Part shown: piece by piece, positions 29,644 to 62,892 of the stretch
Numbering within the stretch: position 1 is the stretch's first letter
Layout: each line of letters opens with the position of its first letter
Assembly: GCA_038062175.1 (NCBI GenBank)
Contig: JBBTXR010000001.1
Location: 9,420 to 73,419, forward strand
Length of the DNA: 64,000 nt
Direction: 5' to 3'
Origin: Patescibacteria group bacterium
GTDB taxonomy: Bacteria; Patescibacteriota; Minisyncoccia; Phycocordibacterales; Phycocordibacteraceae
The notes under the pieces: generated by a model
What the model saw: only the letters and a program-made list of their open reading frames with translations
Database searches by the model: none
Told to the model about the DNA's origin: nothing
Program-made: the position numbers and the translations under genes

Positions 29644-30864
29644 ATGAAGTACCGCGTAATTCTGAAAAATAGTTCAAATAATTCTGAAGAAAAGATAACG
29701 TTGGATGCGCCGTCACGTTTCGCGGTGTATGCGGAAGCGGAGAAGCGAGGTGCCACGGTCGTCAGTATGCGAGAGGGTGGTGGGATGCCACCATTCCTCA
29801 GTCGCCTCTCGAACATTCAGTTCGGAAGCGGTGTGAAGATGGAAGAGCGTATAACCTTCACAAAAAATCTATCCGCCATGCTTTCGGCGGGTCTCTCACT
29901 CTCCCGTGCGCTCTCCGTGATTGAGCGACAGTCGACCAATAAGTCCCTGAAACGAATCGTCTCGGATATTTCTGAGAAGGTGAAAACCGGTCAGGCGTTT
30001 CATGAAACGCTTGAGGCGCATAAAAACGTCTTCTCGGATCTTTTCATCGCGATGACAAAAGCAGGTGAGGAGTCAGGAACACTCGCGGAGGCCTTGAAGG
30101 TCGTGGCACGTCAGATGGATCGATCGAACTCTCTCAATAAGAAGATCAAGGGAGCGATGATTTACCCCTCGATCATTTTGGTTGCGGTGATTCTCATCGG
30201 TATCCTCATGCTGATCTATGTGGTGCCGACTCTCTCAAACACCTTCCGTGAACTTGGTGTGGAACTTCCGGCGGCAACTAAGGCGGTGATCGGTGCGTCC
30301 GACTTTATGGCGAGTCATCCGATTCTTGTGCTCACCCTCTTCGGAATCTTTGTGTTCGGTTTCATTCTCTTTACCAAGACCAGAGTCGGCGCGAGCATGA
30401 TGGTGGGGATCGCGCTCCACGTGCCGGTCATCGGTAACCTGGTCAAGGAGACCTACAGTGCACGAGCAGCGCGTGCACTCGCGTCACTTCTTGCGGCGGG
30501 TGTTGAGATGCTCTCTGCACTTTCAATTGCAGCGGAGGTGGTGGGAGAAAAGAAATTCTCGAAGGTGATCACGGAGGCAGAGGAACGGGTGAGAAAGGGT
30601 GAGTCACTCTCCGCAACGTTTAATGATTATCCAAAACTGTATCCAGTCTTTATCGCTGACATGATCGCGGTGGGGGAGGAGACGGGTAAGGTCGCAGACA
30701 TGCTCGGACAGGTCGCCGAGTACTATGAGACGGATGTGGAGGATCGAACAAAAGATCTCTCAACAATCATTGAACCGGTTCTCATGCTTTTCATTGGAGG
30801 GGTGGTGGGTATATTTGCGCTCTCGATGATCTCACCGATCTACTCGCTGTCAGATAAAATTTAG
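29644..30864 (+). CDS. pilC: Type IV pilus inner-membrane platform protein PilC (GspF family)
   Basis: 406-aa ORF with two GspF repeats and 3-4 TM helices. Confidence 0.9.
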   Translation: MKYRVILKNSSNNSEEKITLDAPSRFAVYAEAEKRGATVVSMREGGGMPPFLSRLSNIQFGSGVKMEERITFTKNLSAMLSAGLSLSRALSVIERQSTNKSLKRIVSDISEKVKTGQAFHETLEAHKNVFSDLFIAMTKAGEESGTLAEALKVVARQMDRSNSLNKKIKGAMIYPSIILVAVILIGILMLIYVVPTLSNTFRELGVELPAATKAVIGASDFMASHPILVLTLFGIFVFGFILFTKTRVGASMMVGIALHVPVIGNLVKETYSARAARALASLLAAGVEMLSALSIAAEVVGEKKFSKVITEAEERVRKGESLSATFNDYPKLYPVFIADMIAVGEETGKVADMLGQVAEYYETDVEDRTKDLSTIIEPVLMLFIGGVVGIFALSMISPIYSLSDKI

Positions 30865-31533: not shown

Positions 31534-31561
31534 CGCACATTCGGTGCGCTATCATACCCAT

Positions 31562-33284: not shown

Positions 33285-33866
33285 ATGCGGGGATTCACAC
33301 TCATTGAGACCATCGTCGTTGTCGCGATCGTGACGATGGTGGGTGTTGCGCTCACCGGTTCAATCCAGTATTTCTACCGGAGCAATGCCTACATTCTTGA
33401 GCAGACCGCTGCGCTTGAGAGTGTGCGGCGCGGTCACACCTTCACACTCCAGAACCTCCGTGAGGCCACCTATGGCGACGATGGGTCCTACCTTATCACT
33501 GCTGCAGGCACATCGACCGTCACCTTTTATGGCGATATCGATCAAGACGGCGGCATTGAACGGGTGCGAGCGTATTTAACTAACGGTACGCTCTACCGGG
33601 CGATTGCAAACTCATCCGGAAATCCAGCAAGCTACAGCGGGCAGCCCGAGATACTTGAAACGATTGCTGTCTATGTGCGTAATGCGACCTCGACACCCAT
33701 TTTCACCTACTACAACAGTGAAGGCGCTGAGCTTACGTATCCGATCGATCTCACGGCGATCACGGCAGTCGGTGTGCATCTGGCTGTCGACATCAATCCA
33801 AACCGTCTCCCGAACATCTTCACACTTACGGGTCGTGCGACGCTGCGTAACCTACCGACAGAGTAG
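33285..33866 (+). CDS. Pseudopilin with prepilin-type cleavage/methylation N-terminus
   Basis: MRGFTLIETIVVVAIV at the N-terminus. ATG sits 1 nt after the upstream stop. The ORF-track start at 33162 is an overlapping extension. Confidence 0.8.
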   Translation: MRGFTLIETIVVVAIVTMVGVALTGSIQYFYRSNAYILEQTAALESVRRGHTFTLQNLREATYGDDGSYLITAAGTSTVTFYGDIDQDGGIERVRAYLTNGTLYRAIANSSGNPASYSGQPEILETIAVYVRNATSTPIFTYYNSEGAELTYPIDLTAITAVGVHLAVDINPNRLPNIFTLTGRATLRNLPTE

Positions 33867-33875
33867 AATAGAGGG

Positions 33876-35288
33876 ATGCAGAAAGCGCCGCGTGGCTACC
33901 TCCTCCTTCTGGGACTCGTATTCGGTACGATCTTTATCACGGTGCTCGGCAGTCTTGCGAGCTTCGTTCTCATCTCCAATCGTGCACAGACGGTGAACAC
34001 CGAACGTGCGATGGCCTTTGCGATCGCGGAGGCAGGGCTTGAGTACTACCGCTGGTTCCTTGCGCATAATCCGGGCGACATAACCAATGGCACAGGAGCG
34101 CCTGGCCCCTATGTAATTCCGTATGAGGATCCTGAATCATCGACCGAGGGCACGATCACGCTCGATATCGAAGGGAACACTCAGTGCGGTCAGTTGACTT
34201 CAATCGACATCAACTCAACTGGGCAGGCAGAGGGGGCTGATGTTTCTCGCACGCTTACCGTACGCTATACGCGTCCTTCGGTTGCGCTCTACTCCTATAT
34301 ATTGAACGACACGGTATGGGCAGGAGCCGATCGTGTCATCAATGGGCCCTACCACAGCAACGGCGGCATCCGTATGGATGGAACAGCGAATGCGCCTGTG
34401 ACCAGTTCGCTATCTTCGTGGCTCTGTACCTCGACCTTCGGCTGCTCACCCAATCAGACTAAAAATGGCGTCTGGGGTGCAGGACCTAATCAGACCCTCT
34501 GGAGCTTCCCGGTACCCCAGGTCGATTTCGCCGGTATCTCTGCCGACTTCGGAAGTTTGAAGACGATCGCACAATCCGAGGGGGTATATCTTCCACGCTA
34601 TTCAACGGGAAACAGTAATGGCGCTGCGTATTGGCACGGCTATCATCTTATTTTCAATGCAAACGGCACGATCACGGTACGTCGTGTATCGGCAACGACA
34701 CAGCTGAATGTGACACCGATCAATCCATCCGATAGTGGAACCGATCGCGCCCTCATTCAAAACGAGACCTTCTATCAGACCATCACGCCACCAGCAGGCT
34801 GCAAGCTCATCTTCATTGAAGATAATGTTTGGATTGAAGGAACGGTGTCGGACAAATACACGGTAGTTGCAGCGAATGTGACCACGAGCGGCATTGCACC
34901 TAATGCGTATCTCCGCGGCAACACGATGTATCAGACGACGGACGGTTCGGATGGGCTCACGGTCATCGCCGAGCACAACATCCTCGTCACGCCGGACTCT
35001 CCGAGCACTATGACTCTAAACGGTATCTTCATTGCGCAGGGAGGGGCATTTGGTCGGAACTACTATTCGAGCTGTAATAGCGCGTATGAGCCAAAGTCCT
35101 CACTTACCATCCGTGGCACAACGGTTTCGAACAAGCGTACCGGCACGAAGTGGATAAATGGGTGTGGCAACTACGCAGGCTACAACAATCGTGTTGATGC
35201 TTATGACCGGCAGCTGGCGACCGATCCCCCGGCATTCACCCCGGTCGTGTCCACCGACTATCAGTTCGTCGATTGGCGGGAGGAGTAG
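33876..35288 (+). CDS. PilX-like pilus assembly/minor pilin protein
   Basis: N-terminal TM helix followed by a PilX_N-like motif (AFAIAEAGLEYYRW), then a large beta-rich C-terminal domain. Confidence 0.55.
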   Translation: MQKAPRGYLLLLGLVFGTIFITVLGSLASFVLISNRAQTVNTERAMAFAIAEAGLEYYRWFLAHNPGDITNGTGAPGPYVIPYEDPESSTEGTITLDIEGNTQCGQLTSIDINSTGQAEGADVSRTLTVRYTRPSVALYSYILNDTVWAGADRVINGPYHSNGGIRMDGTANAPVTSSLSSWLCTSTFGCSPNQTKNGVWGAGPNQTLWSFPVPQVDFAGISADFGSLKTIAQSEGVYLPRYSTGNSNGAAYWHGYHLIFNANGTITVRRVSATTQLNVTPINPSDSGTDRALIQNETFYQTITPPAGCKLIFIEDNVWIEGTVSDKYTVVAANVTTSGIAPNAYLRGNTMYQTTDGSDGLTVIAEHNILVTPDSPSTMTLNGIFIAQGGAFGRNYYSSCNSAYEPKSSLTIRGTTVSNKRTGTKWINGCGNYAGYNNRVDAYDRQLATDPPAFTPVVSTDYQFVDWREE

Positions 35289-41380: not shown

Positions 41381-42823
41381 ATGAGCCGCTTGTTTCTTTT
41401 AGGTATCGGAGCGTTTGCGCTTGGCGTTGCGATGCAGTCGCTGTATCCCGTGTCGCTGCCACTAATCGCATTTGCTGCACTCGCTGGCATGGTGCTTATT
41501 TTCTTTGCGCGAACAGACTGGTCGATGGGTGTGGGTGTCGTGCTAGTGCTGTGTGCGCTTGGGGTAGGGAGGGTGGCATTCATGCCAAGCAGCCCTCCTC
41601 CTGTATTCCTACCGCTCTTTGATACGAAGGTGGAGTTACTTGGTGTGGTGGTGGGCGATCCAGACATTCGAGAAACTACCCAACGCGTAACGGTTGAAGT
41701 CGCACATGAGGATGCGCGAATGCGAGTGCTCGTGGTGGCATCCTTGTATCCCGAACTTGCGCATGGCGAGGGAGTAGCAGTCATCGGAAAACTTGAACAC
41801 CCTGAACCCTTCGACACGGATGGTGGCCGTGTTTTTCGCTACGACACATTCCTCGCAAAAGACGGCGTGTTCGGGATTGTGAGTTATGCAAACGTCGAAG
41901 TGGTGAGTAAACCATCCACACTCGATACATTTCGAAGTTCTTTGTACGCAGTGAAGCACTGGTTCACGCGTGGACTTGAATACGCACTTCCAGAACCCTA
42001 TGCCGCGCTTGCTGCAGGCATCATCACGGGCGGGAAGCAGGGTCTTGGGAAAGAACTCCTTGATGCGTTTACGACTGCCGGACTCATACATATCGTGGTC
42101 CTCTCTGGATACAACGTAATGATTGTGGCGGAGGCAGTGCTCCGGATGTGTGGGTTTCTAAAGAAGCGTAGCGCTGCAGTAGTGGCAGGGATCGTGATCG
42201 CACTCTTTGTTATGGCAGCGGGAGCAGGAGCGGCAAGCATTCGTGCAGGCGTGATGGCAGGGGTCGCGCTCTTTGCGAGAGCGTCCGGGCGTACCTATGA
42301 CGCACTTCGAGCACTTCTCTTTGTGTTTGTGGCTATGCTCCTCATCAATCCGCTTCTGCTTATACATGATCCGGGATTTCAATTCTCCTTTGCAGCAACG
42401 CTCGGACTCATCCTTGCAGCTCCCTCGATTGAGGCGCGATTTGCAAGGGTGCGTCCCGCCTTTGTGCGCGATATTGCTGCTACTACTATTGCCGCGCAGC
42501 TATTTGTCTTACCGCTTCTGTTGTATCAGACAGGTAATCTTTCGTTTATCGCGTTTCCCGCAAACATTCTCGCGCTTCCGGTTGTTCCGCTTGCCATGCT
42601 TTTCTCAGCCATTGCAGGGGTGGCGGGAATTCTCGTTCCTTTCATTGCTCCCGTTATTGCTGTCCCCGCACTTCTTTTACTTGCGTATCTTATTGAGCTC
42701 GCGCAGATTGCCGCGTCACTTCCATACGCCACGAGTGTCGTCCCGGTATTTCCGTTTATTCTGGTACCCGTTATGTATGCAGGCCTTGCGGGCCTTATCT
42801 ATCTTCTAAAGAGAAGTGGCTAG
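41381..42823 (+). CDS. comEC: ComEC/Rec2 competence channel, membrane part (DUF4131 + Competence domain), no MBL domain
   Basis: 480-aa polytopic membrane protein with the Competence-domain signature (AAGIITGGKQGLGKELLDAFTTAGLIHIVVLSGYN). Confidence 0.8.
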   Translation: MSRLFLLGIGAFALGVAMQSLYPVSLPLIAFAALAGMVLIFFARTDWSMGVGVVLVLCALGVGRVAFMPSSPPPVFLPLFDTKVELLGVVVGDPDIRETTQRVTVEVAHEDARMRVLVVASLYPELAHGEGVAVIGKLEHPEPFDTDGGRVFRYDTFLAKDGVFGIVSYANVEVVSKPSTLDTFRSSLYAVKHWFTRGLEYALPEPYAALAAGIITGGKQGLGKELLDAFTTAGLIHIVVLSGYNVMIVAEAVLRMCGFLKKRSAAVVAGIVIALFVMAAGAGAASIRAGVMAGVALFARASGRTYDALRALLFVFVAMLLINPLLLIHDPGFQFSFAATLGLILAAPSIEARFARVRPAFVRDIAATTIAAQLFVLPLLLYQTGNLSFIAFPANILALPVVPLAMLFSAIAGVAGILVPFIAPVIAVPALLLLAYLIELAQIAASLPYATSVVPVFPFILVPVMYAGLAGLIYLLKRSG

Positions 42824-49306: not shown

Positions 49307-51844
49307 ATGAAACTCAATCAACTTTCTGCCTCTGCACTTATCGGTGTACTTATTATTCTTCCGTTCGCGGCGCATGCCGATATCATTCCGGGTGATCCCG
49401 TGCTCTCTACCTTCGAGAATCAGCAGGGACTCATGGTCTCGCTTGAGGTGGGTGGCGAAGTGATTACTGATGCAGCCTCAAGTTCACTTCCCGTAGGTAC
49501 GCCACTAGAAATTGAGTATCAGATCAAACTCGGGAGCAGAAACTATCCAAATGATTCTGAAGAAGTACGAACAGAAATACTGTTGAGTATCCTTGAAGAC
49601 ACGCGAACGTATCTCGAGCTGTGGCGGGGCACACCGTTTACTGCCGACGCAACATTCATCGATTCAAGAGAGTTGTCGGCTACACCTGAGGGTACGGTGA
49701 GCATGAGTGTGCCGGAAGCTGGGGAGTACTTCTTCTTACTCTATGCGGGAGATCAGATACGGGATATGGATGCGTATTGCGAAAAGTATCAGGTCGAACC
49801 AGAAAACTGTGCTGACCCTGAGTTCATACAGCAACATACTCCCGAAGAAGTGCATCCGTACTTCACCTATGAACTCGACTCAGATCCATGGAATGAGTTT
49901 CAGTTTCCGCCTATATGGGGAGGAGTACGTTTTGCAATTGATGCGCCGTCGGTAGGGGCACCGAATATTCTTTTCATTCCAGGATTCACCGCAAGCCGGC
50001 TGTATATGACAGATACCGATGGTGATGAGGAGCCCTTGTGGGAGCCGCTGGGGAGCGAGGACATCAAGAGGCTCGCTTTTACGCCTGAAGGTACGAGCAA
50101 GGAGGTTGTGTATACGCGCGATATCGTTGATTCGATTAAGAATCTTCCGTTTGGGTTTACGGTCCACGAGGAATTTATGGAATATCTCGATGACCTTAAG
50201 GAAGACGAGAAGATCGCTGACTGGAAGGGATATCCATACGACTGGCGGTATGACGTGTTTGATGTGGTCGATAACGGTGCACTGAAGGAGAACGGTTCGC
50301 GCGAATACCTTATTGATGTTGTCGAAGAGCTCGCAGCATCTTCAAAGAATGGAAAGGTAGCGATCGTTGCTCATTCAAATGGTGGACTTGTCGCAAAGGC
50401 GCTTATGGTGCGACTTGAAGCGCAGGGGAAGGCAGATCTTGTAGATAAGATTGTATTGATTGCATCACCGCAGGCGGGGACGCCCAAAGGCATGTTCAGT
50501 CTCCTGCATGGGCGTGAGAAGCTCCTCAACTTCATCGTTCCGGCAGGCGTACTTCGCTCTGTGCTTGCGACCCTTCCGGGCGCATATTCACTCGCGCCTT
50601 CAGGGATGTACTTCGAACAGGAATCTGAGAAGCTTGCCGAATTCAAGAGTGGATCGAAGACTGATGCTTTGGTGGCAGCGTTCGGATCTGCAATTGATTC
50701 AGCAGTAGAAGCACGGGGATTTGCACTCAATACACCAGAGACAAGATCGACTCCAACCGAAAGGGATTCGGGCACACCGCTCCCACTTTCTCCAGAATTA
50801 ATCGCAAAGACTGAAGCGACGCACGCAATCCTAGATGCGTGGGTGCCACCCGCAGGCGTAACGGTGCATGAGATTGCGGGATGGGGCCAGCCGACCGTCA
50901 GTACTGGTTCCTACTACACGCTTAACAAAACCTGCTTGCTTGGAATATTCTTCTGCAGCCAACCAACTATTGAATACAAGCCACTCACTTCTAGTGATGG
51001 AGATGAGACGGTGATGTCATCGAGTGCATTGATGGGGGAGGGTGGGGTGTATTTCAACCTGCATGAATTGAGGGATCAGTTTAGAGAAAACAAAAAGCAC
51101 CATAACCTTACCGATTCTAAGTTCCTGCATCCATACATATCTAATTTGCTTGTCGGTACGACTCCGTTTGAAACAGATTTATTCCCTTATGAAAAACCCG
51201 ATACAAATCTTGCAAACACAGTCGTTGGTATCCACTCTCCTGCACTTATATCGGCAGAAGATACAGAAGGTAATGTGACAGGCATATTCCCACTCACGAA
51301 TAGTGATCTGATGTACGTGCGTGAGGAAATACCAGGCAGTAGTGTCGAGTTGGGAGGAGAAGGTAAATACCTTGTTCTTCCTAAAGAAGGTGCGTACGAC
51401 CTTACTATTGATGGAACTGGTGCCGGGACATTCGGTGTTTCCTTCTCAGATGAGGACGGGAATGTATTTAAGGAGTTAAAAGATCTACCCATTTCGACTT
51501 CTACTGAAGCAACTCTCACCATTGATGACGGAAGTGCAGGATCGCTCATTCTGGATCTCGATGGAGATGGAAAGACAGATGGTGTCGTAAAAGACAAGCT
51601 CGCCCGAAAAGATGCTATAGCTATCTGTAAGAAAGAAATAGGCCTCGTCCGTACTGTGTTCGTGAAATTGTACATAGCTCTTGTTATAGGCAGTATCGAA
51701 TCTCAGGGAAAGGACAATGCAAAGTTTCAGAAGTTCGTCACAGAACTCAAGAAATATGTTCAGGCACACCTGAGCTCTATCCCCCCTGAGCGTGCTGCAG
51801 CTATTGCTACCTGCATCCATGCGCTGGAGAATAGTAAGAAATGA
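49307..51844 (+). CDS. Large secreted alpha/beta-hydrolase (lipase/PGAP1-like) protein
   Basis: Signal peptide (LIGVLIILPFAAHA). GxSxG-type nucleophile elbow (IVAHSNGGLVA). 845 aa with beta-rich C-terminal extensions. Confidence 0.55.
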   Translation: MKLNQLSASALIGVLIILPFAAHADIIPGDPVLSTFENQQGLMVSLEVGGEVITDAASSSLPVGTPLEIEYQIKLGSRNYPNDSEEVRTEILLSILEDTRTYLELWRGTPFTADATFIDSRELSATPEGTVSMSVPEAGEYFFLLYAGDQIRDMDAYCEKYQVEPENCADPEFIQQHTPEEVHPYFTYELDSDPWNEFQFPPIWGGVRFAIDAPSVGAPNILFIPGFTASRLYMTDTDGDEEPLWEPLGSEDIKRLAFTPEGTSKEVVYTRDIVDSIKNLPFGFTVHEEFMEYLDDLKEDEKIADWKGYPYDWRYDVFDVVDNGALKENGSREYLIDVVEELAASSKNGKVAIVAHSNGGLVAKALMVRLEAQGKADLVDKIVLIASPQAGTPKGMFSLLHGREKLLNFIVPAGVLRSVLATLPGAYSLAPSGMYFEQESEKLAEFKSGSKTDALVAAFGSAIDSAVEARGFALNTPETRSTPTERDSGTPLPLSPELIAKTEATHAILDAWVPPAGVTVHEIAGWGQPTVSTGSYYTLNKTCLLGIFFCSQPTIEYKPLTSSDGDETVMSSSALMGEGGVYFNLHELRDQFRENKKHHNLTDSKFLHPYISNLLVGTTPFETDLFPYEKPDTNLANTVVGIHSPALISAEDTEGNVTGIFPLTNSDLMYVREEIPGSSVELGGEGKYLVLPKEGAYDLTIDGTGAGTFGVSFSDEDGNVFKELKDLPISTSTEATLTIDDGSAGSLILDLDGDGKTDGVVKDKLARKDAIAICKKEIGLVRTVFVKLYIALVIGSIESQGKDNAKFQKFVTELKKYVQAHLSSIPPERAAAIATCIHALENSKK

Positions 51845-52275
51845 AGCAAAAGCTCTTATTAGTAGGTGTAGCAACTCTGGGCGTAATTGCCGTTACTTAT
51901 TTGATTTGGCCCGAATGGTTCGGTTTTTGCGAGAAAATCAAAACCGTCACTCGCGGTGATATATGTCGCGCACCATACGCTGCCCTAGTAGGTAAGCCAC
52001 TGTTGCCGTTCACATTAGGTTTTCTGCTAGCCTCACTCTTTGCCTTCTTCGTTACCCGAAAGACTCACCACCACTGGGCCTGGTTTACCCTCTGGTACAG
52101 CATTGTAGCTGCCATTCTCATGCTCCTGGCTATCGCTTCTGAGATTGATGTAGGCATGCTTACCATTCAGCTCTTTGATATAGAGAAGGTGGCCTGGTTC
52201 CTGGCGGGTATATACGCCGTTATCTCAGTCCTTCTCCTCGGTATCTCCGACTTTCTGATCCGTCGGAAGCGATAG
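51841..52275 (+). CDS. Integral membrane protein (4 TM), hypothetical
   Basis: 144-aa hydrophobic ORF overlapping the upstream stop (ATGA). Confidence 0.5.
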   Translation: MKQKLLLVGVATLGVIAVTYLIWPEWFGFCEKIKTVTRGDICRAPYAALVGKPLLPFTLGFLLASLFAFFVTRKTHHHWAWFTLWYSIVAAILMLLAIASEIDVGMLTIQLFDIEKVAWFLAGIYAVISVLLLGISDFLIRRKR

Positions 52276-52286
52276 GAAGGATGTAT

Positions 52287-52315
52287 TTGCATTAATCTAG
52301 GCCTTTCTATATAGT
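52287..52315 (+). promoter_or_regulatory. Sigma-70-like promoter upstream of rpsL (TTGCAT-N17-TATAGT)
   Basis: Near-consensus -35 and -10 with 17-bp spacing, about 36 nt upstream of the rpsL ATG. Confidence 0.5.
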
Positions 52316-52351
52316 GTGCCTAACTCCCACGGGGGAGTTTTCATTTACGAC

Positions 52352-52762
52352 ATGGCAACCATCCAGCAGCTGACAAAGTCTCCTCGGAGCAAGAACAAGC
52401 GAAAATCAAAAGTCGTGGCTCTTGGTCGTGGTTTCAACACCTTGAAGAATCGTCCAACCTTCTACCCAGCGCCATTTAAGCGCGGTGTTTGTGTGAAGGT
52501 GACGACGAAAACCCCCCGCAAGCCTAACTCGGCTATTCGTAAGATCGCCCGTGTCCGCCTTACTAACGGTATGGAGGTTACTGCCTACATCCCAGGTGAG
52601 GGTCACAACCTCCAGGAGCACTCAGTGGTCATGCTCCGTGGTGGTCGCGTGAAGGACATTGGTGTCCAGTACACCATCGTTCGTGGACGCCTTGATACCG
52701 CCGGTCTTGATAAGCGTCGCCGTGGTCGCTCACGTTATGGTGCTAAGCGCCCGAAGGCATAA
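52352..52762 (+). CDS. rpsL: 30S ribosomal protein S12
   Basis: S12 signature (PKKPNSALRK-like: [20 protein letters not shown]). Start at MATIQQL. Confidence 0.9.
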
Positions 52763-52771
52763 TTTTAGAAC

Positions 52772-53236
52772 ATGCGTCACCCTGTAAAGAACAAGTACCC
52801 ACGCCGCCCTGACCTCGTCTACGGATCCGAGGCTATCTCACGCTTCATCAACACGGTCATGTGGGACGGTAAGAAGGACACGGCTCGTAAGCTCGTGTAT
52901 GGAGCGCTCGACAAGATCAAGGAGCAGGAGATGGATCCGCTTGAGACCTTCGAGACCGCCATCCGCAACGTCGCTCCCCTTATGGAGGTTCGTTCCCGCC
53001 GTGTCGGTGGCGCTAACTACCAGGTGCCTCGCGAGGTTCCTCAGCAGCGCCGTATCGCTCTTGCATACCGCTGGCTCATCAACGCTGCCCGCAACAAGAA
53101 GGGGAAGCCTATGGCCGAGAAGCTCGCAGAGCAGATCCTCCTTGCCGCAAAGAACGAGGGTGACGCAATTAAGAAGAAGGACGACATGCACCGCATGGCA
53201 GAAGCAAACAAGGCATTTGCTCACTTCGCGTGGTAA
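52772..53236 (+). CDS. rpsG: 30S ribosomal protein S7
   Basis: S7 motifs ([32 protein letters not shown]). Confidence 0.9.
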
Positions 53237-53307
53237 TTCCTTACCAATAGGAACTGAGAAAGGCGCTCCGTACGGAGCGCCTTTCGCGTCGTATATACTA
53301 AGGAAAC

Positions 53308-53571
53308 ATGAGTGATGAGGTGATATTCGATGGAGAGAAAGATCCGGTGGCATCGCGCCGCTCAAACAATCAGCGTACTGGCAGATCCATAGCCGAACTC
53401 ATTACCCCAGGACCGCGTAAAGAGCAGGGCATGAGCGACAAGGTCGTGCTTGGTGTCCTAGGAACGGTACTTATAGCCTCAATCCTTATTGCGGTTAAGA
53501 CAGCACCCAAAGAAATCGTGCTGCTGACGCCCATGGACGCGCCGCTGGTTAATCCGCCACCGCGCCAATAG
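53308..53571 (+). CDS. Hypothetical small single-TM protein
   Basis: 87-aa ORF with one hydrophobic helix ([18 protein letters not shown]), immediately upstream of and nearly abutting the pilin gene. Confidence 0.4.
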
Positions 53572-53573
53572 TT

Positions 53574-54041
53574 ATGAAACAATCTCCACGCGGATTCACG
53601 CTTATTGAGCTCCTGGTCGTCATTGCGATCATCGGGATCCTGTCTTCGGTCGTGCTCGCGTCATTGAATGTGGCGCGTAACCGGGCGAATGACGCAAAGA
53701 GAAAGTCTGACGCAGGTCAACTTGTTCGGGCAATCGCTAACTTCTACAGCACTAACGGTTCACTTCCGCAGGTTACTAACTTCTGCTCAACGGTGACGCA
53801 TACGACGGGTGGCCCGCTTCTTACGTCAGACCTGGTGCCAGGCTATATAGCAAAGCTTTCAAGTGATCCGACTCGTGGGGGTGGGGCAGGTGACTATATC
53901 TACAGAAATAGAGATGATCATAATGGCGGATATACGGTGTGCGCTGCTCTTGAAACCGATCCGGGTACGGAGGAGCCTTCTGATATGTCGTCATGTGCAG
54001 GTTGGTCGGCTTCGTATAACCACTGTATTACGCAGCGGTAA
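53574..54041 (+). CDS. Type IV major pilin (PilA-like), inside the str operon
   Basis: Classic prepilin N-terminus ([26 protein letters not shown]) and a C-terminal Cys pair. Confidence 0.85.
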
Positions 54042-54045
54042 AAGT

Positions 54046-54080
54046 GAGCGCGCCCCGGAAAGGGCGCGCGAAGCATAAAT
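54046..54080. terminator. Bidirectional GC hairpin between the pilin gene and the antisense ORF
   Basis: gcgcgccc-cggaaa-gggcgcgc 8-bp stem. T-rich on the minus side. Confidence 0.55.
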
Positions 54081-54083
54081 TTC

Positions 54084-54380
54084 TCAGTGACGTTTCGGTC
54101 GTAGTCCGAGTTGTTCACTCACGGTCCGGACCCTCGCCGATGTGTTTTTAAAGCCAAGACTGGTCAGGTCATGGCTACCTACCGCTGTCCAGGATTGTCC
54201 CGTCTCATCTGTCGCAAAAGTAACTTCAGGCATGGCACTGAACGTCGGGCCATACTTTGCTTTCTCAGCCTTTGATCGTGCGATGCTTGGCATGTGGGAG
54301 AAACCGAGTTCGCGAAGCTTTGCGGCGTGTTTACTCTCTGCGTCCATGAATTTATCTCCTTCTGTCGAAGACCGTACCAT
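54084..54380 (-). CDS. Hypothetical protein (antisense to the str operon direction)
   Basis: 98-aa ORF with no motif. Coding status uncertain. Confidence 0.3.
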   Translation of the reverse strand: MVRSSTEGDKFMDAESKHAAKLRELGFSHMPSIARSKAEKAKYGPTFSAMPEVTFATDETGQSWTAVGSHDLTSLGFKNTSARVRTVSEQLGLRPKRH

Positions 54381-54458
54381 CCCGTTTGCTTTTTGTCCCC
54401 CAGTTCCGTATCTTATGGGTAACGCAACTGCGGGCTTTTTTATTTACTTTCACACCTT

Positions 54459-56606
<2,148 letters not shown>

Positions 56607-56650
56607 GTATCTGCTACCTCAAAAGAACATAGCGCTGTCCTGCGACAGCG

Positions 56651-57523
56651 CTATGTTCTTTTATATGCCTCTCGTAACGCAACTACGTCGTCACTTACGT
56701 TCTTCAGCGTAGGAACGAGGTGGTCGTAGAGTATATCGATGAGTTTGAATGTCTCTTCGAAAGCAGTGCGAGATTGAGGGAGGCTATGGAGTGAGAAGAT
56801 GTAGATCTTTGTTCCTACACACTCAAATCCATACGAGCCAAACGAATCCATATATGAGGCCATGAATGCAGGATCCAGCACCGTGAGTGCCTCCACTTCC
56901 ATCTCGTGAGAGGTGTACACATCAAATTGGTCATTAAATGGTCCTTCAAGCCGAAGGATTCTTGTTCCATGAGGGCTCCAATCTCTAGCTCCACTCCAAC
57001 GTTTTGGTCGCACTAGCAGATCGAGCATGGGAACTGCGCACTCTACCTCCCATACGAGCATCTGATGATATGTCCTGTGCTTGTGGCTACCGGTGGTGTA
57101 GTGGAAGGTGAAGAAGCGTGTCGGACGACCTTCGTAGGTTCCTGAGAACACGTCGGCGAGTCTGCGACTGTGCCCGAATGAAAAGATCTGTCCGGTAACG
57201 GTATTCATGGCAGCGGATTCGCTGTACGCGAAGCCGTAGGATGCGGCAATCTCCTTATAAAATTGTTTCTGGACGACACGTCGCGCAAGTCCGTATGCAA
57301 TCAAAAAGGGTGCGATAGGTAACGAAAGTACGAGGACCACACCCGTTGCGTTGCTTACGAAGGTTTCTAGAGATCCTAGTGCGAATGCGGCTACGACGAG
57401 CCCTGCAATAGCACAGAGTTCAAAGACTATGGCGATAGTGGCGAGTACCTGTGTCCGTCTGCGGTGTGTCACCCACAGATGCGTCATAAGGGCATCCTCA
57501 ACGCTTTCTATGCGAGATTCCAT
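56651..57523 (-). CDS. Hypothetical membrane protein (2 N-terminal TM helices plus cytoplasmic domain) between fusA and tuf
   Basis: 290-aa ORF on the opposite strand to the ribosomal cluster. Confidence 0.5.
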   Translation of the reverse strand: MESRIESVEDALMTHLWVTHRRRTQVLATIAIVFELCAIAGLVVAAFALGSLETFVSNATGVVLVLSLPIAPFLIAYGLARRVVQKQFYKEIAASYGFAYSESAAMNTVTGQIFSFGHSRRLADVFSGTYEGRPTRFFTFHYTTGSHKHRTYHQMLVWEVECAVPMLDLLVRPKRWSGARDWSPHGTRILRLEGPFNDQFDVYTSHEMEVEALTVLDPAFMASYMDSFGSYGFECVGTKIYIFSLHSLPQSRTAFEETFKLIDILYDHLVPTLKNVSDDVVALREAYKRT

Positions 57524-57622
57524 GATTTCCTCACAGTACCTTGATTCATATGGACGACCTTCTCTTATGCACAGGATTTCTCATGCTATGCTCAGCCGCA
57601 GAACAGTAGGAGGAAGGTTTCA

Positions 57623-57859
57623 ATGGCAACCTATTTCTTCGAGACGATCACAGACGGACAGGCACTGAGATTCAATGATGATGACGTACTCGTCTTCGGG
57701 GCAGTCAACAATGATCGATTTCCCTTCAGCGAGGTCTGCATCTTGGCTCGACCGCGACTTCCAGCACCGCCACCCGTACTCGGCAAACGGCTCCTGATGA
57801 CGCAGACGGTGCTCCGCAGACCTGAACTGTGGCAGAAAAGGACACGAGGCGACCCCTAG
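57623..57859 (+). CDS. Small hypothetical protein with strong SD and its own terminator
   Basis: AGGAGGAAGG sits 5 nt upstream of the ATG. 78 aa. The stop is embedded in a GC hairpin terminator. Confidence 0.45.
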   Translation: MATYFFETITDGQALRFNDDDVLVFGAVNNDRFPFSEVCILARPRLPAPPPVLGKRLLMTQTVLRRPELWQKRTRGDP

Positions 57860-57880
57860 GGTCGCCTTTCCTTGACCTTT
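57848..57880 (+). terminator. Rho-independent terminator
   Basis: ggcgaccc-cta-gggtcgcc followed by tttccttgaccttt. Confidence 0.7.
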
Positions 57881-58078
57881 CATTTCACGGCCTGTATCTT
57901 TACCCCTAACGCGAGTACGGCGCTCTTTTTAGTATTCCTTCTCCATAGGGGACAGGGGTTTCTGAAAGGCGCTGCGCGGGGAAATCGCCCAACGCCTTGG
58001 TCGCCTGCCATTCTCTGAGGGGAAGCAGGCAGGCGCGGCAAAAAGTTATAACTTTAGCTACCAGTAATTTACGTACCT

Positions 58079-59281
58079 ATGGCAGATGCATTCGATCGCA
58101 GCAAGCCGCACATGAACGTAGGAACCATCGGTCACGTTGACCATGGTAAGACCACGCTCACGGCTGCTATCCTCAACGTCCTTAACCTTAACTCTGGTGC
58201 CGGCTACAAGGCTCGCGCTGAGAAGGTTGAGAATATCGACAACGCGCCTGAAGAGAAGGCTCGTGGTATTACCATCGCGCTCCACCACTCGGAGTACGAG
58301 TCACCGAACCGCCACTACGCGCACATCGATGCGCCGGGCCACGCTGACTACATCAAGAACATGATCACTGGTGCCGCCCAGATGGACGGCGCAGTCCTCG
58401 TGGTTGCTGCAACTGACGGCGCAATGCCTCAGACCCGTGAGCACATCCTTCTTGCAAAGCAGGTTGGTGTGCCAAAGCTCATCGTCTTCCTCAACAAGGT
58501 GGACATGGTTGATGACAAGGACATGGTGGACCTCGTTGAAGAGGAAATCCGCGAACTTCTCACCAAGCAGGGCTTCGACGGTGCTGCTACCCCCGTTGTT
58601 AAGGGTTCAGGTTTGAAGGCACTTGAGGCAACCTCAGCAGATGACGAGTACGCACTCAAGGTGAAGGAGCTCATCGACACGATGGACTCATACTTCCCAG
58701 ATCCTGTTCGTGAGACCGACAAGCCGTTCCTTATGGCAATTGAGGACATCTTCTCGATTGAAGGACGCGGTACGGTGGTCACCGGTCGTATCGACCGCGG
58801 CATCGTAAAGGTGGGTGAGGAAGTCGACATCGTCGGTCTTCATGACACCGCCAAGACGACTGTCACCGGTATCGAGATGTTCAACAAGCAGCTCCAGGAG
58901 GGTCAGGCAGGCGACAACGCAGGTATTCTTCTTCGCGGTACGAAGAAGGAGGACGTGCATCGCGGCCAGGTGCTCGCAAAGACTGGTTCTGTGAAGCCAC
59001 ACACCGAGTTCGAGGCTGAGGTCTACATCCTCTCCAAGGACGAGGGTGGTCGCCACACCCCATTCTTCTCAGGTTACAAGCCTCAGTTCTACGTTCGTAC
59101 AACCGACGTGACTGGTGAAGTGACCCTTCCAGACGGAAAGGAAATGGTTATGCCAGGTGACACCGTGACCTTCAAGGTCAAGCTCACCGCGCCTATCGCC
59201 ATGGAGGAGCAGATGCGCTTTGCTATCCGCGAGGGTGGCAAGACGGTTGGTGCCGGCGTCGTGACGAAGATCACCGTCTAA
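58079..59281 (+). CDS. tuf: Elongation factor Tu (divergent)
   Basis: [18 protein letters not shown] motifs with full EF-Tu length. Unusual substitutions versus the canonical sequence ([12 protein letters not shown]). Confidence 0.95.
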
Positions 59282-59312
59282 GGTATCATTCTCACAACGC
59301 ACATTGACTCGT

Positions 59313-59678
59313 ATGGCAACCGCAACTAAGAAAGTATCCAAGAAGAAGGTCGCTGAGGCAGGTCCTGCCGCAGAGCCCAAGCTTCGCATCCGTGTGCGCG
59401 CCTACGAGCACAAGATTCTCGACCTTTCGGTGAAGCAGATCATGGATACGGCTAATCGCTTCGATGCGAAAATCGTCGGTCCGATCCCGCTCCCGACCGA
59501 GATCAAGCGCTGGACCGTGAACCGCTCCACGTTCGTGCACAAGGACGCACGCGAGCAGTTCGAGATGCGCATCCACAAGCGCCTCATCGACATCATGTCG
59601 CCGAACCCTAAGGTTATCGAGGCTCTCACGAACCTCAACCTTCCTTCAGGAGTCACGATTGATGTGAAGATGGCGTAA
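59313..59678 (+). CDS. rpsJ: 30S ribosomal protein S10
   Basis: S10 core (RIRVRAYEHKILD...KDAREQFEMRIHKRLIDI) with a Lys/Ala-rich N-terminal extension. Possible alternative TTG start at 59304. Confidence 0.9.
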   Translation: MATATKKVSKKKVAEAGPAAEPKLRIRVRAYEHKILDLSVKQIMDTANRFDAKIVGPIPLPTEIKRWTVNRSTFVHKDAREQFEMRIHKRLIDIMSPNPKVIEALTNLNLPSGVTIDVKMA

Positions 59679-59695
59679 GTCAAAAGATGCAAAGC

Positions 59696-59726
59696 AAAGC
59701 GCCCCGAAAGGGGCGTTTTGCTTTTG
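59696..59726 (+). terminator. Hairpin H1 of a conserved terminator-like repeat family (after rpsJ)
   Basis: aaagcgcccc-gaaa-ggggcgtttt followed by GCTTTTG. Shares the GGGGCGTTTTGCTTTT tail with H2-H4. Confidence 0.7.
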
Positions 59727-59764
59727 TCTGTCGCTAATGATTATCTATCGATAGGAGGTGTCTC

Positions 59765-60040
59765 ATGTTCTTGATCTATTTTTTATCTCCCCATGAAAGG
59801 TGGCGGCGATTCTGTGAAAGAAATCGTGAGTTCCAGCGGGCGCGTCGTAGATGGTTGCGGCAAACTCCTGGCACGCCAGAGGAGAGAGCTGCGGGCAGAG
59901 AACTGAGTCGAATTAGAAAGAAGCTTCACCGACTTGGGGCATCGCTCGGTATGGCAGAAGTCGCCACTGAGCTCCTGCTTCCGCGGGAGTTTCGTTCACG
60001 CGGCACGCCCCCGATTCCCAGGTGGATTCTTGCACGTTAG
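59765..60040 (+). CDS. Array ORF A: 91-aa Arg-rich hypothetical protein
   Basis: GGAGGTG SD 4 nt upstream of the ATG. Bounded by hairpins H1 and H2. Confidence 0.5.
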   Translation: MFLIYFLSPHERWRRFCERNREFQRARRRWLRQTPGTPEERAAGRELSRIRKKLHRLGASLGMAEVATELLLPREFRSRGTPPIPRWILAR

Positions 60041-60047
60041 TTAGCAA

Positions 60048-60078
60048 GGGCGCCTCGGAAACGGGGCGTTTTGCTTTT
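60048..60078 (+). terminator. Hairpin H2 of the repeat family
   Basis: gggcgcctcg-gaaa-cggggcg followed by TTTTGCTTTT. Confidence 0.7.
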
Positions 60079-60125
60079 ATATATTTATGTGTTATTATTG
60101 ACCTGAATTATTTGGAGGTCTTTAG

Positions 60126-60434
60126 ATGAGCACGTTTTGGGTTTCTGAAGCAGTGATCAAGGAGACGGTTCGGAAATACCAACTTCCCGAACACGAGGTC
60201 AGATGCCGGTTCATTCAGATTGATGGGTACCTGAAGGACGCGACCAGGTTGAGCGATGCAACGCTCAAGAGCACGATGTGGGACTATCGCCTCCGTGGAG
60301 ATCACTACCAGGCCTCACTTCTCTGGACGGTCTGGACCTGTAGAGCCTTGGGCTTCACGGAACAAGAGATGGTCGACCTGATCATCCCACTGACGGTCTA
60401 CCCAGCTGATGACCTGGTTCAAAGGGTCGCGTAG
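60126..60434 (+). CDS. Array ORF B: 102-aa hypothetical protein
   Basis: GGAGGT SD 6 nt upstream of the ATG. Bounded by H2 and H3. Confidence 0.5.
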   Translation: MSTFWVSEAVIKETVRKYQLPEHEVRCRFIQIDGYLKDATRLSDATLKSTMWDYRLRGDHYQASLLWTVWTCRALGFTEQEMVDLIIPLTVYPADDLVQRVA

Positions 60435-60452
60435 TCCCTCAAGATCAACGTG

Positions 60453-60485
60453 CGACGCCTCGAGCAATCGGGGCGTTTTGCTTTT
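60453..60485 (+). terminator. Hairpin H3 of the repeat family
   Basis: gcgacgcctcg-agcaat-cggggcg followed by TTTTGCTTTT. Confidence 0.7.
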
Positions 60486-60528
60486 ACCCATGCGCATGCG
60501 ATAGTCGCCACAGAAGAGGAGGTGATCC

Positions 60529-60927
60529 ATGACTGGATTCATCAAGACGCACGAGCGACTGTCAGCATTTGCGGAAGTGATCAAGCCGAGACATATCGCG
60601 GTTCCTTTCCACGCCTTCGGCAAGGCGGAGATCGACGAGAATGCAGGTCACCTCGTGAGTTTCTTCCAGGAGCAAGACGCATGGGTGCCGTTCGAAATGT
60701 CGGCCTTCAAGGAGTTTTGCACACGCTTCAGGCCGAATGGCAGTCCCATCTTCTACGGTCTTGTCGGTGACGGGTTCGATGAGGGTGATCCTACTATCCA
60801 TTACGATCCGCATCTCATCCGGCTTCTCGATGATGGTCGATTGATTGTGACCGACCGATTCATCCTCCGTTGTAGCGGCATGAGTTCGGATCGGATTAGC
60901 GGTCTGACGCGAGAAATTGCAGCCTGA
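60529..60927 (+). CDS. Array ORF C: 132-aa acidic hypothetical protein
   Basis: GGAGGTG SD 4 nt upstream of the ATG. Bounded by H3 and H4. Confidence 0.5.
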   Translation: MTGFIKTHERLSAFAEVIKPRHIAVPFHAFGKAEIDENAGHLVSFFQEQDAWVPFEMSAFKEFCTRFRPNGSPIFYGLVGDGFDEGDPTIHYDPHLIRLLDDGRLIVTDRFILRCSGMSSDRISGLTREIAA

Positions 60928-60934
60928 TCCTAAG

Positions 60935-60967
60935 CGACGCCCCGAGCAATCGGGGCGTTTTGCTTTT
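60935..60967 (+). terminator. Hairpin H4 of the repeat family
   Basis: gcgacgccccg-agcaat-cggggcg followed by TTTTGCTTTT. Near-identical to H3. Confidence 0.7.
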
Positions 60968-61023
60968 CTCTTCATGTGAAATGCGATATTCTCATCCTCT
61001 GTTCTTTCGAAAGGAGGTGATAT

Positions 61024-61406
61024 TCGTGAGCAGAAGACCAATCGGATCTCGTGTCCTGTGGGGTGAAGCTAGGAGTGCTGCACAACATCTCGATGCTGCG
61101 ATGGTTCAGTTTTACCCTGATCCTACAACGTATAAAGGATTTGACGGTAAGCTAGACGATTCCAGTCTTCCCCAAAAGAAGAACTTCGCGCGTTGGAAAC
61201 GTCCAAAGCGTAAGGATGGAACCCGTAAACGGGGAACTCAAGTTCGGCCTCTCGTCATTCGCGAAATCAGAAACGCGAAGGATGAGAAGGGAAGATCGGT
61301 GCGTGGGAGATTCGTCTCTCTTGCTGACTACGAGCAACGCGCTGCGAAATACCGTGAAGATGTGAAGAAATATTTTGAAGAAAACAAGAGGCGGTCGCGG
61401 AGATAG
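61024..61406 (+). CDS. Array ORF D: 127-aa Lys/Arg-rich hypothetical protein (GTG start)
   Basis: GGAGGTG SD 6 nt upstream of the GTG at 61024. The ORF-track ATG at 60960 lies inside hairpin H4 and lacks an SD. A GC hairpin (ggtcgcgg...ccgcgacc) overlaps the 3' end. Confidence 0.45.
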
Positions 61407-61418
61407 GTCCGCGACCGT

Positions 61419-61452
61419 AACGCCCTCGAGCAATCGAGGCGTTTTCTTTTCC
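61419..61452 (+). terminator. Hairpin H5 of the repeat family (compensatory variant)
   Basis: acgccctcg-agcaat-cgaggcgt followed by TTTTCTTTT. The stem keeps base pairing through paired substitutions relative to H3/H4. Confidence 0.65.
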
Positions 61453-61520
61453 ATAGATACAAATTACGGTATGCTCTTCGTCTGTTCCTTGTTCTAGAAA
61501 CGAGATTAGGGGAGTCGATA

Positions 61521-61652
61521 GTGACGAAAAAGATCAAGAAAGAATTGAGCGCCGAGGAGCGCAGAGATTGGCGGGAAAACAGTCAGAATGCAGCGCCCAA
61601 ACCGCCGGTAGGGGTCCTCAAAGATCTCAAAGAGTCTAACCCTCGTGATTGA
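61521..61652 (+). CDS. Array ORF E: 43-aa basic peptide (GTG start)
   Basis: GGGGAG SD 5 nt upstream of the GTG. Followed by a distinct GC hairpin terminator. Not in the ORF track. Confidence 0.3.
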   Translation: MTKKIKKELSAEERRDWRENSQNAAPKPPVGVLKDLKESNPRD

Positions 61653-61661
61653 GTGCTCAGT

Positions 61662-61697
61662 GGCCGCCTCGCAAGGGCGGCCTCCATTTTATTCTTG
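61662..61697 (+). terminator. Rho-independent terminator after ORF E
   Basis: ggccgcc-tcgcaag-ggcggcc followed by tccattttattcttg. Confidence 0.65.
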
Positions 61698-61984
61698 CGG
61701 TATATCTAACTCTGCGTTTAAATAGATGAAGGTGCTCTTTGTGCCACACGCCGCAAACGCGGCGATTCCGCGTTTCTACGAGGGGTTTGTGTGTTTCGAA
61801 GACTGCAAATGCGAGTCGAACAACGGCTAGTCGATCTTGAGTGTGAGCATCGTGTTGTGAAGCGCTTCTCGCACGTTGCGAGACATCCGAGCGATATACA
61901 GTATCGACGCGCGTTCTGGTACTTCGTATGCAGATGCTTCGGCATCTGCCCAGAAAAAACGCTCGCAGGAGCGTAAAAGAGAAT

Positions 61985-62021
61985 GGGCTCCGCGATTTCT
62001 CGCGGAGCCCTTCTTGGTTTG
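61985..62021. terminator. Bidirectional terminator at the end of the antisense membrane-protein gene
   Basis: gggctccgcg-atttct-cgcggagccc 10-bp stem with T-rich flanks on both strands. Confidence 0.7.
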
Positions 62022-62063
62022 ACCTATCAGTTGGTGGCTAGCGACACCCTGTGTCTCAGATGA

Positions 62064-62678
62064 CTACATCGCGTCGAGAAGATCGTCTTCCGTGTTCCAG
62101 GCGCCGATATAGACGCGATCGAAGCCTCGAACGGCGAGAACGAACGGATCCTTGAGTGTATATTCGACGAGCACATACGCTCCGGCTGCTTCTGCCGCCC
62201 TGATCCTTCGATCGAAGCGCGCTGGCGGCTCGATGATCCAATCCTTTCGTGCCGCTGATAGGTGCAGCTGCCGCCAGCTCCAGGTGGTTCTCGGACCTTT
62301 CCGCTCCGCATAGATCCATAGGCAGAACGTTAGAATGCAGCCGATGGCGGGAGTGAGAAGGAGAGCCGCGTGTAGTTGCAGACCAGGCATCGAAAGACAG
62401 GCCAAGCCGGCAACAGTCATCGCGACGACGACGTAGAGATAGTTGTTCGAGTACTGCCGGCCGGTGTACCGCTCGATTATCCTCGGCACGAAGTAGAGTC
62501 TCGGTAGCCAGAGCAGGTAGTAGAGGGTCTGGAGCAAGGCTGGCAATCGGTCCTTGCGCTGATGTGCCTGCACGAGGTGCTTTGGAATAACCGGCACCCC
62601 TTGTGCACGCAGCTCGCTCTCAAGCTTGCTGCAGGTTCTTGCGCCCTTCTCGAAGGCGCGTACTGCATCCATCTTCAT
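62064..62678 (-). CDS. Hypothetical membrane protein, antisense to the ribosomal cluster
   Basis: Two or three TM helices (YLYVVVAMTVAGLACL, LLLTPAIGCILTFCLWIY). Start chosen at the Met preceded by AGAGGT SD (62678). The ORF-track maximal extent to 62996 would overlap rplC. Confidence 0.5.
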   Translation of the reverse strand: MKMDAVRAFEKGARTCSKLESELRAQGVPVIPKHLVQAHQRKDRLPALLQTLYYLLWLPRLYFVPRIIERYTGRQYSNNYLYVVVAMTVAGLACLSMPGLQLHAALLLTPAIGCILTFCLWIYAERKGPRTTWSWRQLHLSAARKDWIIEPPARFDRRIRAAEAAGAYVLVEYTLKDPFVLAVRGFDRVYIGAWNTEDDLLDAM

Positions 62679-62772
62679 GAGAACCTCTAGTGCTATGGGG
62701 GAGAGGCACCCAATGTGCTTCTCCAGAACTCCCGTGGTAGTTGTAGCCGGAAAGCCTCGTAGAGACAAGAAG

Positions 62773-62801
62773 TTGCATTGCCTGAAGGCTTCGTGTAGAG
62801 T
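62773..62801 (+). promoter_or_regulatory. Sigma-70-like promoter for rplC-rplD (TTGCAT-N17-TAGAGT) with a structured ~90-nt leader
   Basis: Same architecture as the rpsL promoter. Leader contains GC hairpins (cccctcgggg, ggccgggaagcccttcgggg) before the rplC ATG. Confidence 0.45.
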
Positions 62802-62892
62802 GCCCCTATCGCTACGTATCCCCTCGGGGAGACCAATGGCCGGGAAGCCCTTCGGGGACGAACGCGCTGTTGAGGCGCGCTTTATTTTTTTC

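Follow-up and report, generated by a model that had tools for sequence, protein, structure and literature searches.

We found a type IV prepilin gene and a small membrane-protein gene directly upstream of it lodged between the ribosomal genes rpsG and fusA of a Patescibacteria genome, and sequence comparison suggests that the two probably form an autonomous bicistronic unit within an insertion-tolerant spacer between separate transcription units. The locus lies on contig JBBTXR010000001.1, of which we analyzed a 64,000-nucleotide stretch (hereafter "the window", with coordinates counted from its first letter). The host is an ultrasmall Paceibacteria/Kaiserbacteria-like bacterium from groundwater, and its nearest relatives by ribosomal protein S7 carry the labels Kaiserbacteria, Paceibacterota or Parcubacteria. 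An earlier note on this DNA had placed the pilin and a small transmembrane (TM) open reading frame (ORF) between rpsG and fusA, and domain searches for S12, S7 and elongation factor G (EF-G) bore this out: rpsL (S12; 52343–52762, + strand; PF00164 at 2.9e-32) and rpsG (S7; 52772–53236, +; PF00177 at 4.5e-56) are followed by the small ORF (sORF; 53308–53571, +), the prepilin (53574–54041, +), a conserved 87-amino-acid (aa) gene that we term rev87 (54084–54347, −; convergent with the pilin and divergent from fusA) and fusA (54459–56606, +; Pfam EF-G domains). That note had overlooked a hairpin after rpsG, the opposite-strand rev87, and gaps at the fusA|tuf and rpsJ|rplC junctions. The same arrangement recurs in an NCBI metagenome-assembled genome (GCA_964366495.1), in an ENA Hainich assembly (well H51) and in two Logan run assemblies, and because these four independent assemblies agree the locus is not a chimera. 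Our full-text literature search returned no description of a pilin between rpsG and fusA or of the upstream sORF partner.

In Escherichia coli, Bacillus and most bacteria the canonical str operon reads rpsL-rpsG-fusA-tuf, and the window retains the order rpsL, rpsG, fusA, tuf, rpsJ on one strand. Unlike the canonical operon, however, the window cluster is split by a terminator-like hairpin after rpsG, a separate promoter-like element before fusA, and opposite-strand genes in both the rpsG|fusA and fusA|tuf gaps. Here the two-gene cassette would occupy the spacer between an rpsL-rpsG unit (putative promoter at 52287, putative hairpin terminator at 53258–53285) and a fusA unit (putative promoter at 54386); the insertion would date back to the ancestor of a small monophyletic group, with vertical inheritance since then. 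Transcription of the pair would rely chiefly on a −10-like box of its own (GTATATACT) placed 8 nt ahead of the sORF ATG, and the bicistronic mRNA would end at a hairpin at 54048–54069, with some read-through from rpsG possible.

The hairpin after rpsG (53258–53285, not assigned to a strand) is a perfect stem-loop with a 12-bp stem and a 4-nt loop (GAAAGGCGCTCC GTAC GGAGCGCCTTTC), terminator-like in form and followed by a weak U tract (CCUUUCGCG), and the 71-nt spacer between rpsG and the sORF that contains it folds at −33.5 kcal/mol (z = −6.5). Surveying the same position in relatives, we found a hairpin of −18 kcal/mol or below within 90 nt of the rpsG stop in 35 of 68 genomes as against none of 120 control windows inside fusA; an initial cut-off of −10 kcal/mol had not been discriminating, as 52 of the 120 controls passed it. 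Many of the relatives' hairpins are flanked by the A/T tracts typical of intrinsic terminators, the orthologous hairpin of L091 (L numbers are our handles for related lineages) has a UUUUU tail, and that of L093 likewise carries a full U tract. At the other end of the cassette, a GC-rich hairpin between the convergent pilin and rev87 (54048–54069, not assigned to a strand) folds at about −20 kcal/mol on either strand, in keeping with the bidirectional hairpin described before, with a T-run on the minus strand only. Separately, we observed that UUCCUUA just 3' of the rpsG stop can pair with UAAGGAA just 5' of the sORF ATG, enclosing the terminator hairpin (53237–53307), and that in a read-through RNA such pairing would hide the stretch immediately ahead of the sORF start; we gave this no weight because the context is not seen in the other three lineages that carry the cassette.

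Upstream of fusA, we found a promoter-like element, TTGCTT-N17-TATCTT (54386–54414, +), which ends 44 nt before the ATG. The generalized pattern TTGC.T-N16-17-TAT..T occurs upstream of fusA in 40 of the 68 relatives, mostly 39–45 nt from the ATG, versus none of 60 control windows, and searching both strands of the window returned two matches only, one before fusA and one before rpsL (TTGCAT-N17-TATAGT, 52287–52315, +, then TAAC, a hairpin and a U-rich leader). The fusA leader (54415–54458, +) consists of TAAC, a short GC hairpin and TTTTTTATTTAC, and it resembles the rpsL leader in its sequence of TAAC, short GC hairpin and TTTTxATTTAC, both being devoid of a Shine-Dalgarno motif. Where a relative's gap is short, the −35 of its fusA promoter overlaps with the 3' arm and T-tract of the terminator behind rpsG. 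Given the post-rpsG hairpins, the conserved fusA motif and the shared leader design, this clade seems to transcribe rpsL-rpsG and fusA as separate units, with a terminator/promoter junction between them. The promoter-leader design itself, TTGC(A/T)T-N16-17-TAT..T (52287–52342 and 54386–54458 in the window), is kept across dozens of Kaiserbacteria-like genomes, with fusA copies in L005–L093.

The cassette has a candidate signal of its own. A motif GTATA(TA)CT lies 6–9 nt upstream of the sORF ATG in all four carrier lineages even though their upstream contexts differ, and the window's box (CGTATATACT, 53290–53299, +), whose end is 8 nt before the ATG, is the only exact copy in the window. We read this motif as a putative −10, from which a dedicated promoter would produce a transcript with a very short leader. 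No recognizable −35 accompanies it, and scanning the rpsG-sORF spacer for generic sigma-70 promoters returned none; the 4-of-6 rule of that scan made it miss the fusA promoter as well. Rfam searches of the whole window (gathering thresholds) and of 52200–54500 (E ≤ 1) returned tRNAs only, with no leader or riboswitch. In L091 we noted a relic −35-like sequence (TTGCTTATGTCC) after the rpsG terminator (1311–1375) and a full copy (TTGCTTTTTGCC...TATCTT) before fusA (2449–2531), and from this relic the cassette may have been inserted into, or have duplicated part of, the terminator/promoter junction.

Codon usage likewise sets the pair apart from its neighbors. Translation genes of the window are strongly biased (leave-one-out codon adaptation index, CAI, 0.63–0.80; GC content at third codon positions, GC3, 0.57–0.75), whereas the pilin (CAI 0.43, GC3 0.52) and the sORF (CAI 0.35) both fall within the range of ordinary genes (0.23–0.61). 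The earlier note had put the pilin inside the str operon and proposed that its abundance would track growth rate through this highly transcribed unit. Membership in the operon would call for contiguous genes free of intervening terminators, promoters and opposite-strand genes, and between rpsG and fusA we instead found two hairpins, rev87 and the fusA promoter motif, together with the cassette's own upstream box; these features argue against the pilin being an operon member, and its ordinary codon usage and the signs of separate units argue against the growth-rate link. The coupling interpretation is thus not supported by the sequence features. The observations that the note had itself named as speaking against its proposal, namely an own promoter plus a terminator after rpsG, or a conserved inherited position, are largely what we see as far as sequence can indicate.

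Comparing the locus with related genomes, as the earlier note had proposed, we found orthologs of the pilin at the same rpsG-fusA site, with the sORF ahead of every one of them, in L085 (77% identity), L088–L090 and L096 (60%) and L091/L092 (53%). Together with the window these make four carrier lineages, and they form one clade in a neighbor-joining tree built on S7 plus 395 EF-G residues. Between the window and L085, the pilin is 77% identical in amino acids with a proportion of synonymous differences (pS) of 0.76, and values for ordinary neighboring genes are similar (metallo-beta-lactamase-fold gene, 81% and 0.72; peptidoglycan-binding gene, 74% and 0.63). As the divergence of the pilin equals that of these neighbors, vertical inheritance rather than transfer of the cassette fits the data. 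We had considered allelic replacement or horizontal transfer of the pilin in view of its high pS relative to S7, and set it aside on finding the flanking ordinary genes equally diverged.

The surroundings of the pair vary among the carriers. In L085 and L088 an opposite-strand gene lies between rpsG and the sORF and a KGG gene follows the pilin, in L091/L092 about 400 bp with a reverse ORF separate rpsG from the sORF, and in the window only the hairpin stands upstream of the pair, with rev87 downstream; in three of the four carrier lineages, therefore, an opposite-strand gene and 400–1000 bp separate the pair from rpsG. On a separate branch, the rpsG terminator of L093 is directly followed by a 45%-identical pilin that lacks the sORF, another pilin, at 46% identity, lies elsewhere, next to uvrC, and the closest sister lineages have no pilin at the rpsG-fusA junction. 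L093 and the sister lineages are compatible with either an older insertion lost several times or two insertions. An S7-based survey of str gaps in 80 genomes, which did not sample the sORF-pilin lineages, gave no enrichment of pilins in these gaps: only L014 (a LamG-type pilin), L008 and L010 had any, all non-orthologous and at about chance level.

Gap length differs widely among relatives, at 39 to 4376 bp between rpsG and fusA and 180 to 3363 bp between fusA and tuf. The rpsG-fusA cargo includes M15-like and NlpC/P60 peptidases, KGG stress proteins, small membrane proteins, EamA/UDG/SulP genes (including transporters) and opposite-strand ORFs, and by these comparisons the junction tolerates insertions and is a hotspot in the clade. 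Some cargo recurs: an SH3/NlpC-P60-like and M15-like peptidase pair, a KGG-repeat stress protein and a small His-rich membrane protein appear in varying combinations in L005, L006, L009, L027, L032 and L093 (rpsG-fusA gaps) as well as in L010, L028, L085 and L088. The varied combinations suggest an old gene pool with differential loss or shuffling.

The sORF encodes an 87-aa bitopic membrane protein with a single predicted TM helix (residues 38–64) and low-confidence flanks, matching the small TM ORF that had been noted ahead of the pilin. Its reading frame is kept in the four lineages despite indels, which are in-frame, and the proportion of nonsynonymous differences (pN 0.19–0.49) is well below pS (0.51–0.83), on which grounds we regard it as a real gene. 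The sORF stop lies 2 nt before the pilin start in the window and 2–4 nt before it in every carrier lineage, a spacing that suggests translational coupling. The family is an orphan one: searches returned 8 homologs among 5.8 billion (5.8e9) proteins, Pfam and NCBIfam gave no match for either the sORF or rev87, and a profile run against 1.84 billion representatives matched only the sORF's own cluster, an L091-type cluster and one Ig-like repeat protein. Scanning metagenomes with the sORF profile added one further contig only, from the known L088 lineage. The Ig-like repeat protein, an unrelated 565-aa protein (P0135), has five tandem repeats (KPPAIIITSPSDNSLVNTP) whose first strand the extracellular tail of the sORF (53500–53568) resembles; this sole outside match covers the first strand only, may reflect chance or a shared strand motif, and was not taken as homology or as the sign of a wider family. 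More speculatively, and in our estimation rather improbably, the sORF-pilin pair could be a lineage-specific module in which the orphan bitopic protein acts as a membrane chaperone, anchor or assembly regulator, and whose place behind rpsG has been kept by selection through heavy gene turnover, because leaky termination lets the pilin supply of an ultrasmall, obligately host-attached cell follow its translation capacity.

The pilin gene itself had been called a textbook prepilin, and our profile searches agree. Its N-terminus (MKQSPRG|) combines a 7-aa basic leader with G−1, F+1, E+5 and a hydrophobic stretch of about 20 residues, as expected for prepilin cleavage and methylation, and the 155-aa product scores above the cut-offs of PF07963 (36.8 bits, cut-off 21.2, E = 2.4e-9) and TIGR02532 (37.8 bits, cut-off 16.3, E = 1e-9). 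The GspG model TIGR01710 aligns to residues 6–131 (1.5e-13) at 50.9 bits, short of its equivalog cut-off of 88.85, and all NCBIfam equivalog scores of the pilin likewise fall under their cut-offs; with this score, and no secretin or other Gsp genes within the 64-kb window, we do not assign it to GspG. Sequence matches in the PDB are pilins or GspG only, mostly through the N-terminal helix. An AlphaFold2 model built from a 40-sequence alignment (predicted local distance difference test score 78.8) shows a 52-residue N-terminal helix (residues 10–61) followed by a small beta-sheet of four or five strands, the lollipop fold of an extended helix carrying a C-terminal sheet. When the PDB was searched with this model by Foldseek, every one of the top 11 matches was a pilin or pseudopilin, albeit at weak E-values (best 0.02, probability 0.92); they include gonococcal PilE (1ay2), PulG (1t92), EpsG and Clostridioides difficile PilA1.

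Further features resemble those of major type IVa pilins. The mature protein has 148 aa after its 7-aa leader, and four cysteines (71, 123, 141 and 151) are conserved in close orthologs, with C141 and C151 placed 10 residues apart as in the C-terminal disulfide loop of type IVa major pilins, a spacing that suggests a C141–C151 disulfide; size, leader and this putative loop are those of a major type IVa pilin. Gly, Ala, Ser and Thr (GAST) make up 37% of the pilin versus 22–30% of cytoplasmic proteins of the window, and GAST content has been used as a signature of exposed pilins (PMC11623550). The indirect signs of abundance are mixed, GAST content being pilin-like yet codon usage ordinary. From these motifs, profiles and fold predictions, we consider the gene a genuine prepilin with major-pilin-like features; its product is most likely a structural subunit, and probably the major subunit, of a pilus built by an unlinked pilB/pilC/minor-pilin cluster.

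That cluster lies 18–26 kb upstream, as the earlier note had reported with about 20 kb. It comprises a pilB-type assembly ATPase (27743–29497, +; TIGR02538 at 1.1e-159, under the equivalog cut-off), a pilC/gspF-type platform protein (29644–30864, +; TIGR02120 at 2.7e-89) and three large prepilin-like (minor pilin) genes (31544–33283, 33285–33866 and 33876–35288, all +), of which the middle one matches PF07963 and the outer two have readable hydrophobic prepilin-like N-termini. The cassette's pilin is the sole small pilin in the window, the pilB/pilC cluster having only large minor-pilin-like genes. Among the window ORFs scanned we found no prepilin peptidase (PF01478/PF06750), which the note had suggested looking for elsewhere in the genome, and no pilT or pilMNO.

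Set beside known systems, the pilin shares with type IVa major pilins (PilA/PilE) and with GspG/PulG of the type II secretion system the class III signal with its basic 7-aa leader and G−1/F+1/E+5, the long N-terminal helix with a beta-sheet head, the C-terminal cysteine pair and a mature protein of about 150 aa. Unlike those proteins, it belongs to a Patescibacteria host, its head domain shows only weak similarity to solved structures (Foldseek E ≥ 0.02), and a dedicated orphan membrane ORF stands ahead of its gene; unlike their systems, the 64-kb window has no visible secretin, pilD, pilT or pilMNO. Pilin genes of Patescibacteria are scattered over several loci and orphan pilins are normal, as with pilA2, pilJ and pilK of Nanosynbacter lyticus TM7x, and small major pilins are highly expressed alongside large minor pilins (PMC11623550). 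Our locus is like those orphan pilins of TM7x in having the pilin gene away from the assembly genes and a small pilin alongside large minor pilins, and unlike TM7x in belonging to a Paceibacteria/Kaiserbacteria-like lineage rather than to Saccharibacteria.

Several observations weigh against an autonomous unit that encodes a major pilin. The carrier clade rests on a neighbor-joining tree of about 550 residues without support values; with only three U after it and the sORF ATG 22 nt away, the rpsG hairpin of the window could let substantial read-through pass; few U likewise follow the post-pilin hairpin on the plus strand; the putative −10 box, with no −35, could be a translation or regulator site instead; the pair has been retained despite heavy turnover of its neighbors and L093 has a pilin at the same junction, both of which could reflect selection for position; and within a 64-kb view, in which other pilin paralogues may lie beyond the window and no prepilin peptidase was found, major-pilin status is putative. 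We therefore weighed the possibility that the sORF and pilin are effectively carried on the rpsL-rpsG transcript through the leaky hairpin, with coupling to ribosomal-protein expression or growth rate explaining the retained position. Read-through across this U-poor hairpin is possible, as its tract (CCUUUCGCG) is not a proper one; the position is kept in four lineages, a distant ortholog stands immediately after rpsG in L093, and pilin genes rank among the most strongly expressed ones of cultivated Patescibacteria (PMC11623550). We nevertheless judge this unlikely, as cassette and box are still conserved in L085, L088 and L091/L092 behind 400–1000 bp and an opposite-strand ORF, full U tracts follow the orthologous hairpins of L091 and L093, the codon usage of the pilin is unlike that of highly expressed genes, and most close relatives have no pilin at the site at all.

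Whether the prepilin is the major subunit is a distinct matter, and we give a minor though appreciable chance to its being an orphan or minor pilin, or a pseudopilin of a short competence or secretion pseudopilus, with the true major pilin encoded elsewhere in the genome. Its best family-level match is the GspG pseudopilin model, albeit under cut-off, comEC lies in the window at 41381–42823, Patescibacteria typically have many pilin paralogues at several loci, orphan pilins included (PMC11623550), and we see 64 kb of the genome and ordinary codon usage. The mature size of 148 aa, short leader, C141/C151 pair and raised GAST are, however, major-pilin-like, and no other small pilin occurs in the window, where the pilB/pilC cluster holds large minor-pilin-like genes only. 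A recent horizontal or mobile insertion, or an assembly artefact, could be imagined at a hotspot with such variable cargo, and we hold it very improbable: the arrangement is the same in four independent assemblies, GC content is native (53–54% in local 1-kb windows versus 51.9% for the pilin and 54.2% for the sORF), no flanking repeats or recombinase genes surround the cassette, and the carriers are monophyletic with divergence equal to that of flanking ordinary genes. An autonomous sORF-pilin unit in the inter-unit spacer is thus the reading we prefer.

Beyond the cassette, the neighboring gene rev87 has 5 homologs, and those divergent to fusA were found also in L023 (6596–6844, −) and in L097–L099 (49% identity; L097 2298–2576). 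They share the motif ESKHAxxLRELGF...DETGQxW...HDLTSLGF and stand divergent to fusA in at least three separate lineages, whatever the gap content. Searches with phmmer and hmmsearch limited the homologs to L023 and the proteins P0130–P0133, and spoke against homology for opposite-strand ORFs near rpsG in L085, L088, L017 and others ("FDPLTG..W..DL"), which we had considered as candidates.

The ribosomal gene block of this genome is broken at several junctions. The fusA|tuf gap of the window spans 1.5 kb (56607–58078) with a DUF3137-like gene on the minus strand (56651–57523), tuf (58079–59281, +) and rpsJ (59304–59678, +) follow, and the rpsJ|rplC gap, at a junction where the two genes are normally adjacent, holds about 3.2 kb (59679–62890) of unannotated ORFs, such as 60529–60927 and 60960–61406, which have no Pfam match. 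On the other side, an LCAT/PGAP1-like secreted lipase of 845 aa adjoins rpsL (49307–51844), with homologs upstream of rpsL in L005–L017 and L088; the lipase gene and rpsL share a strand in the window and L088 and lie on opposite strands in most other close relatives, and these strand differences indicate local inversions around the str cluster.

Taken for what it is, the gene encodes an ordinary type IV pilin, and its location, though unusual, can be explained; current understanding is not overturned. What looks like a "gene inside a ribosomal operon" can turn out to be cargo of a terminator/promoter junction, and in Kaiserbacteria-like lineages the str/S10 block is split into separate units with variable inserts. 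By-products of the analysis are a small orphan membrane protein found in strict linkage with one pilin lineage and a testable promoter/leader consensus, the rpsL/fusA design, which could serve as promoter and 5' untranslated region consensus for this uncultivated clade. Attachment and DNA uptake in Patescibacteria depend centrally on type IV pili, and the identity and expression of the structural pilin bear on the host-dependent lifestyle of these organisms.

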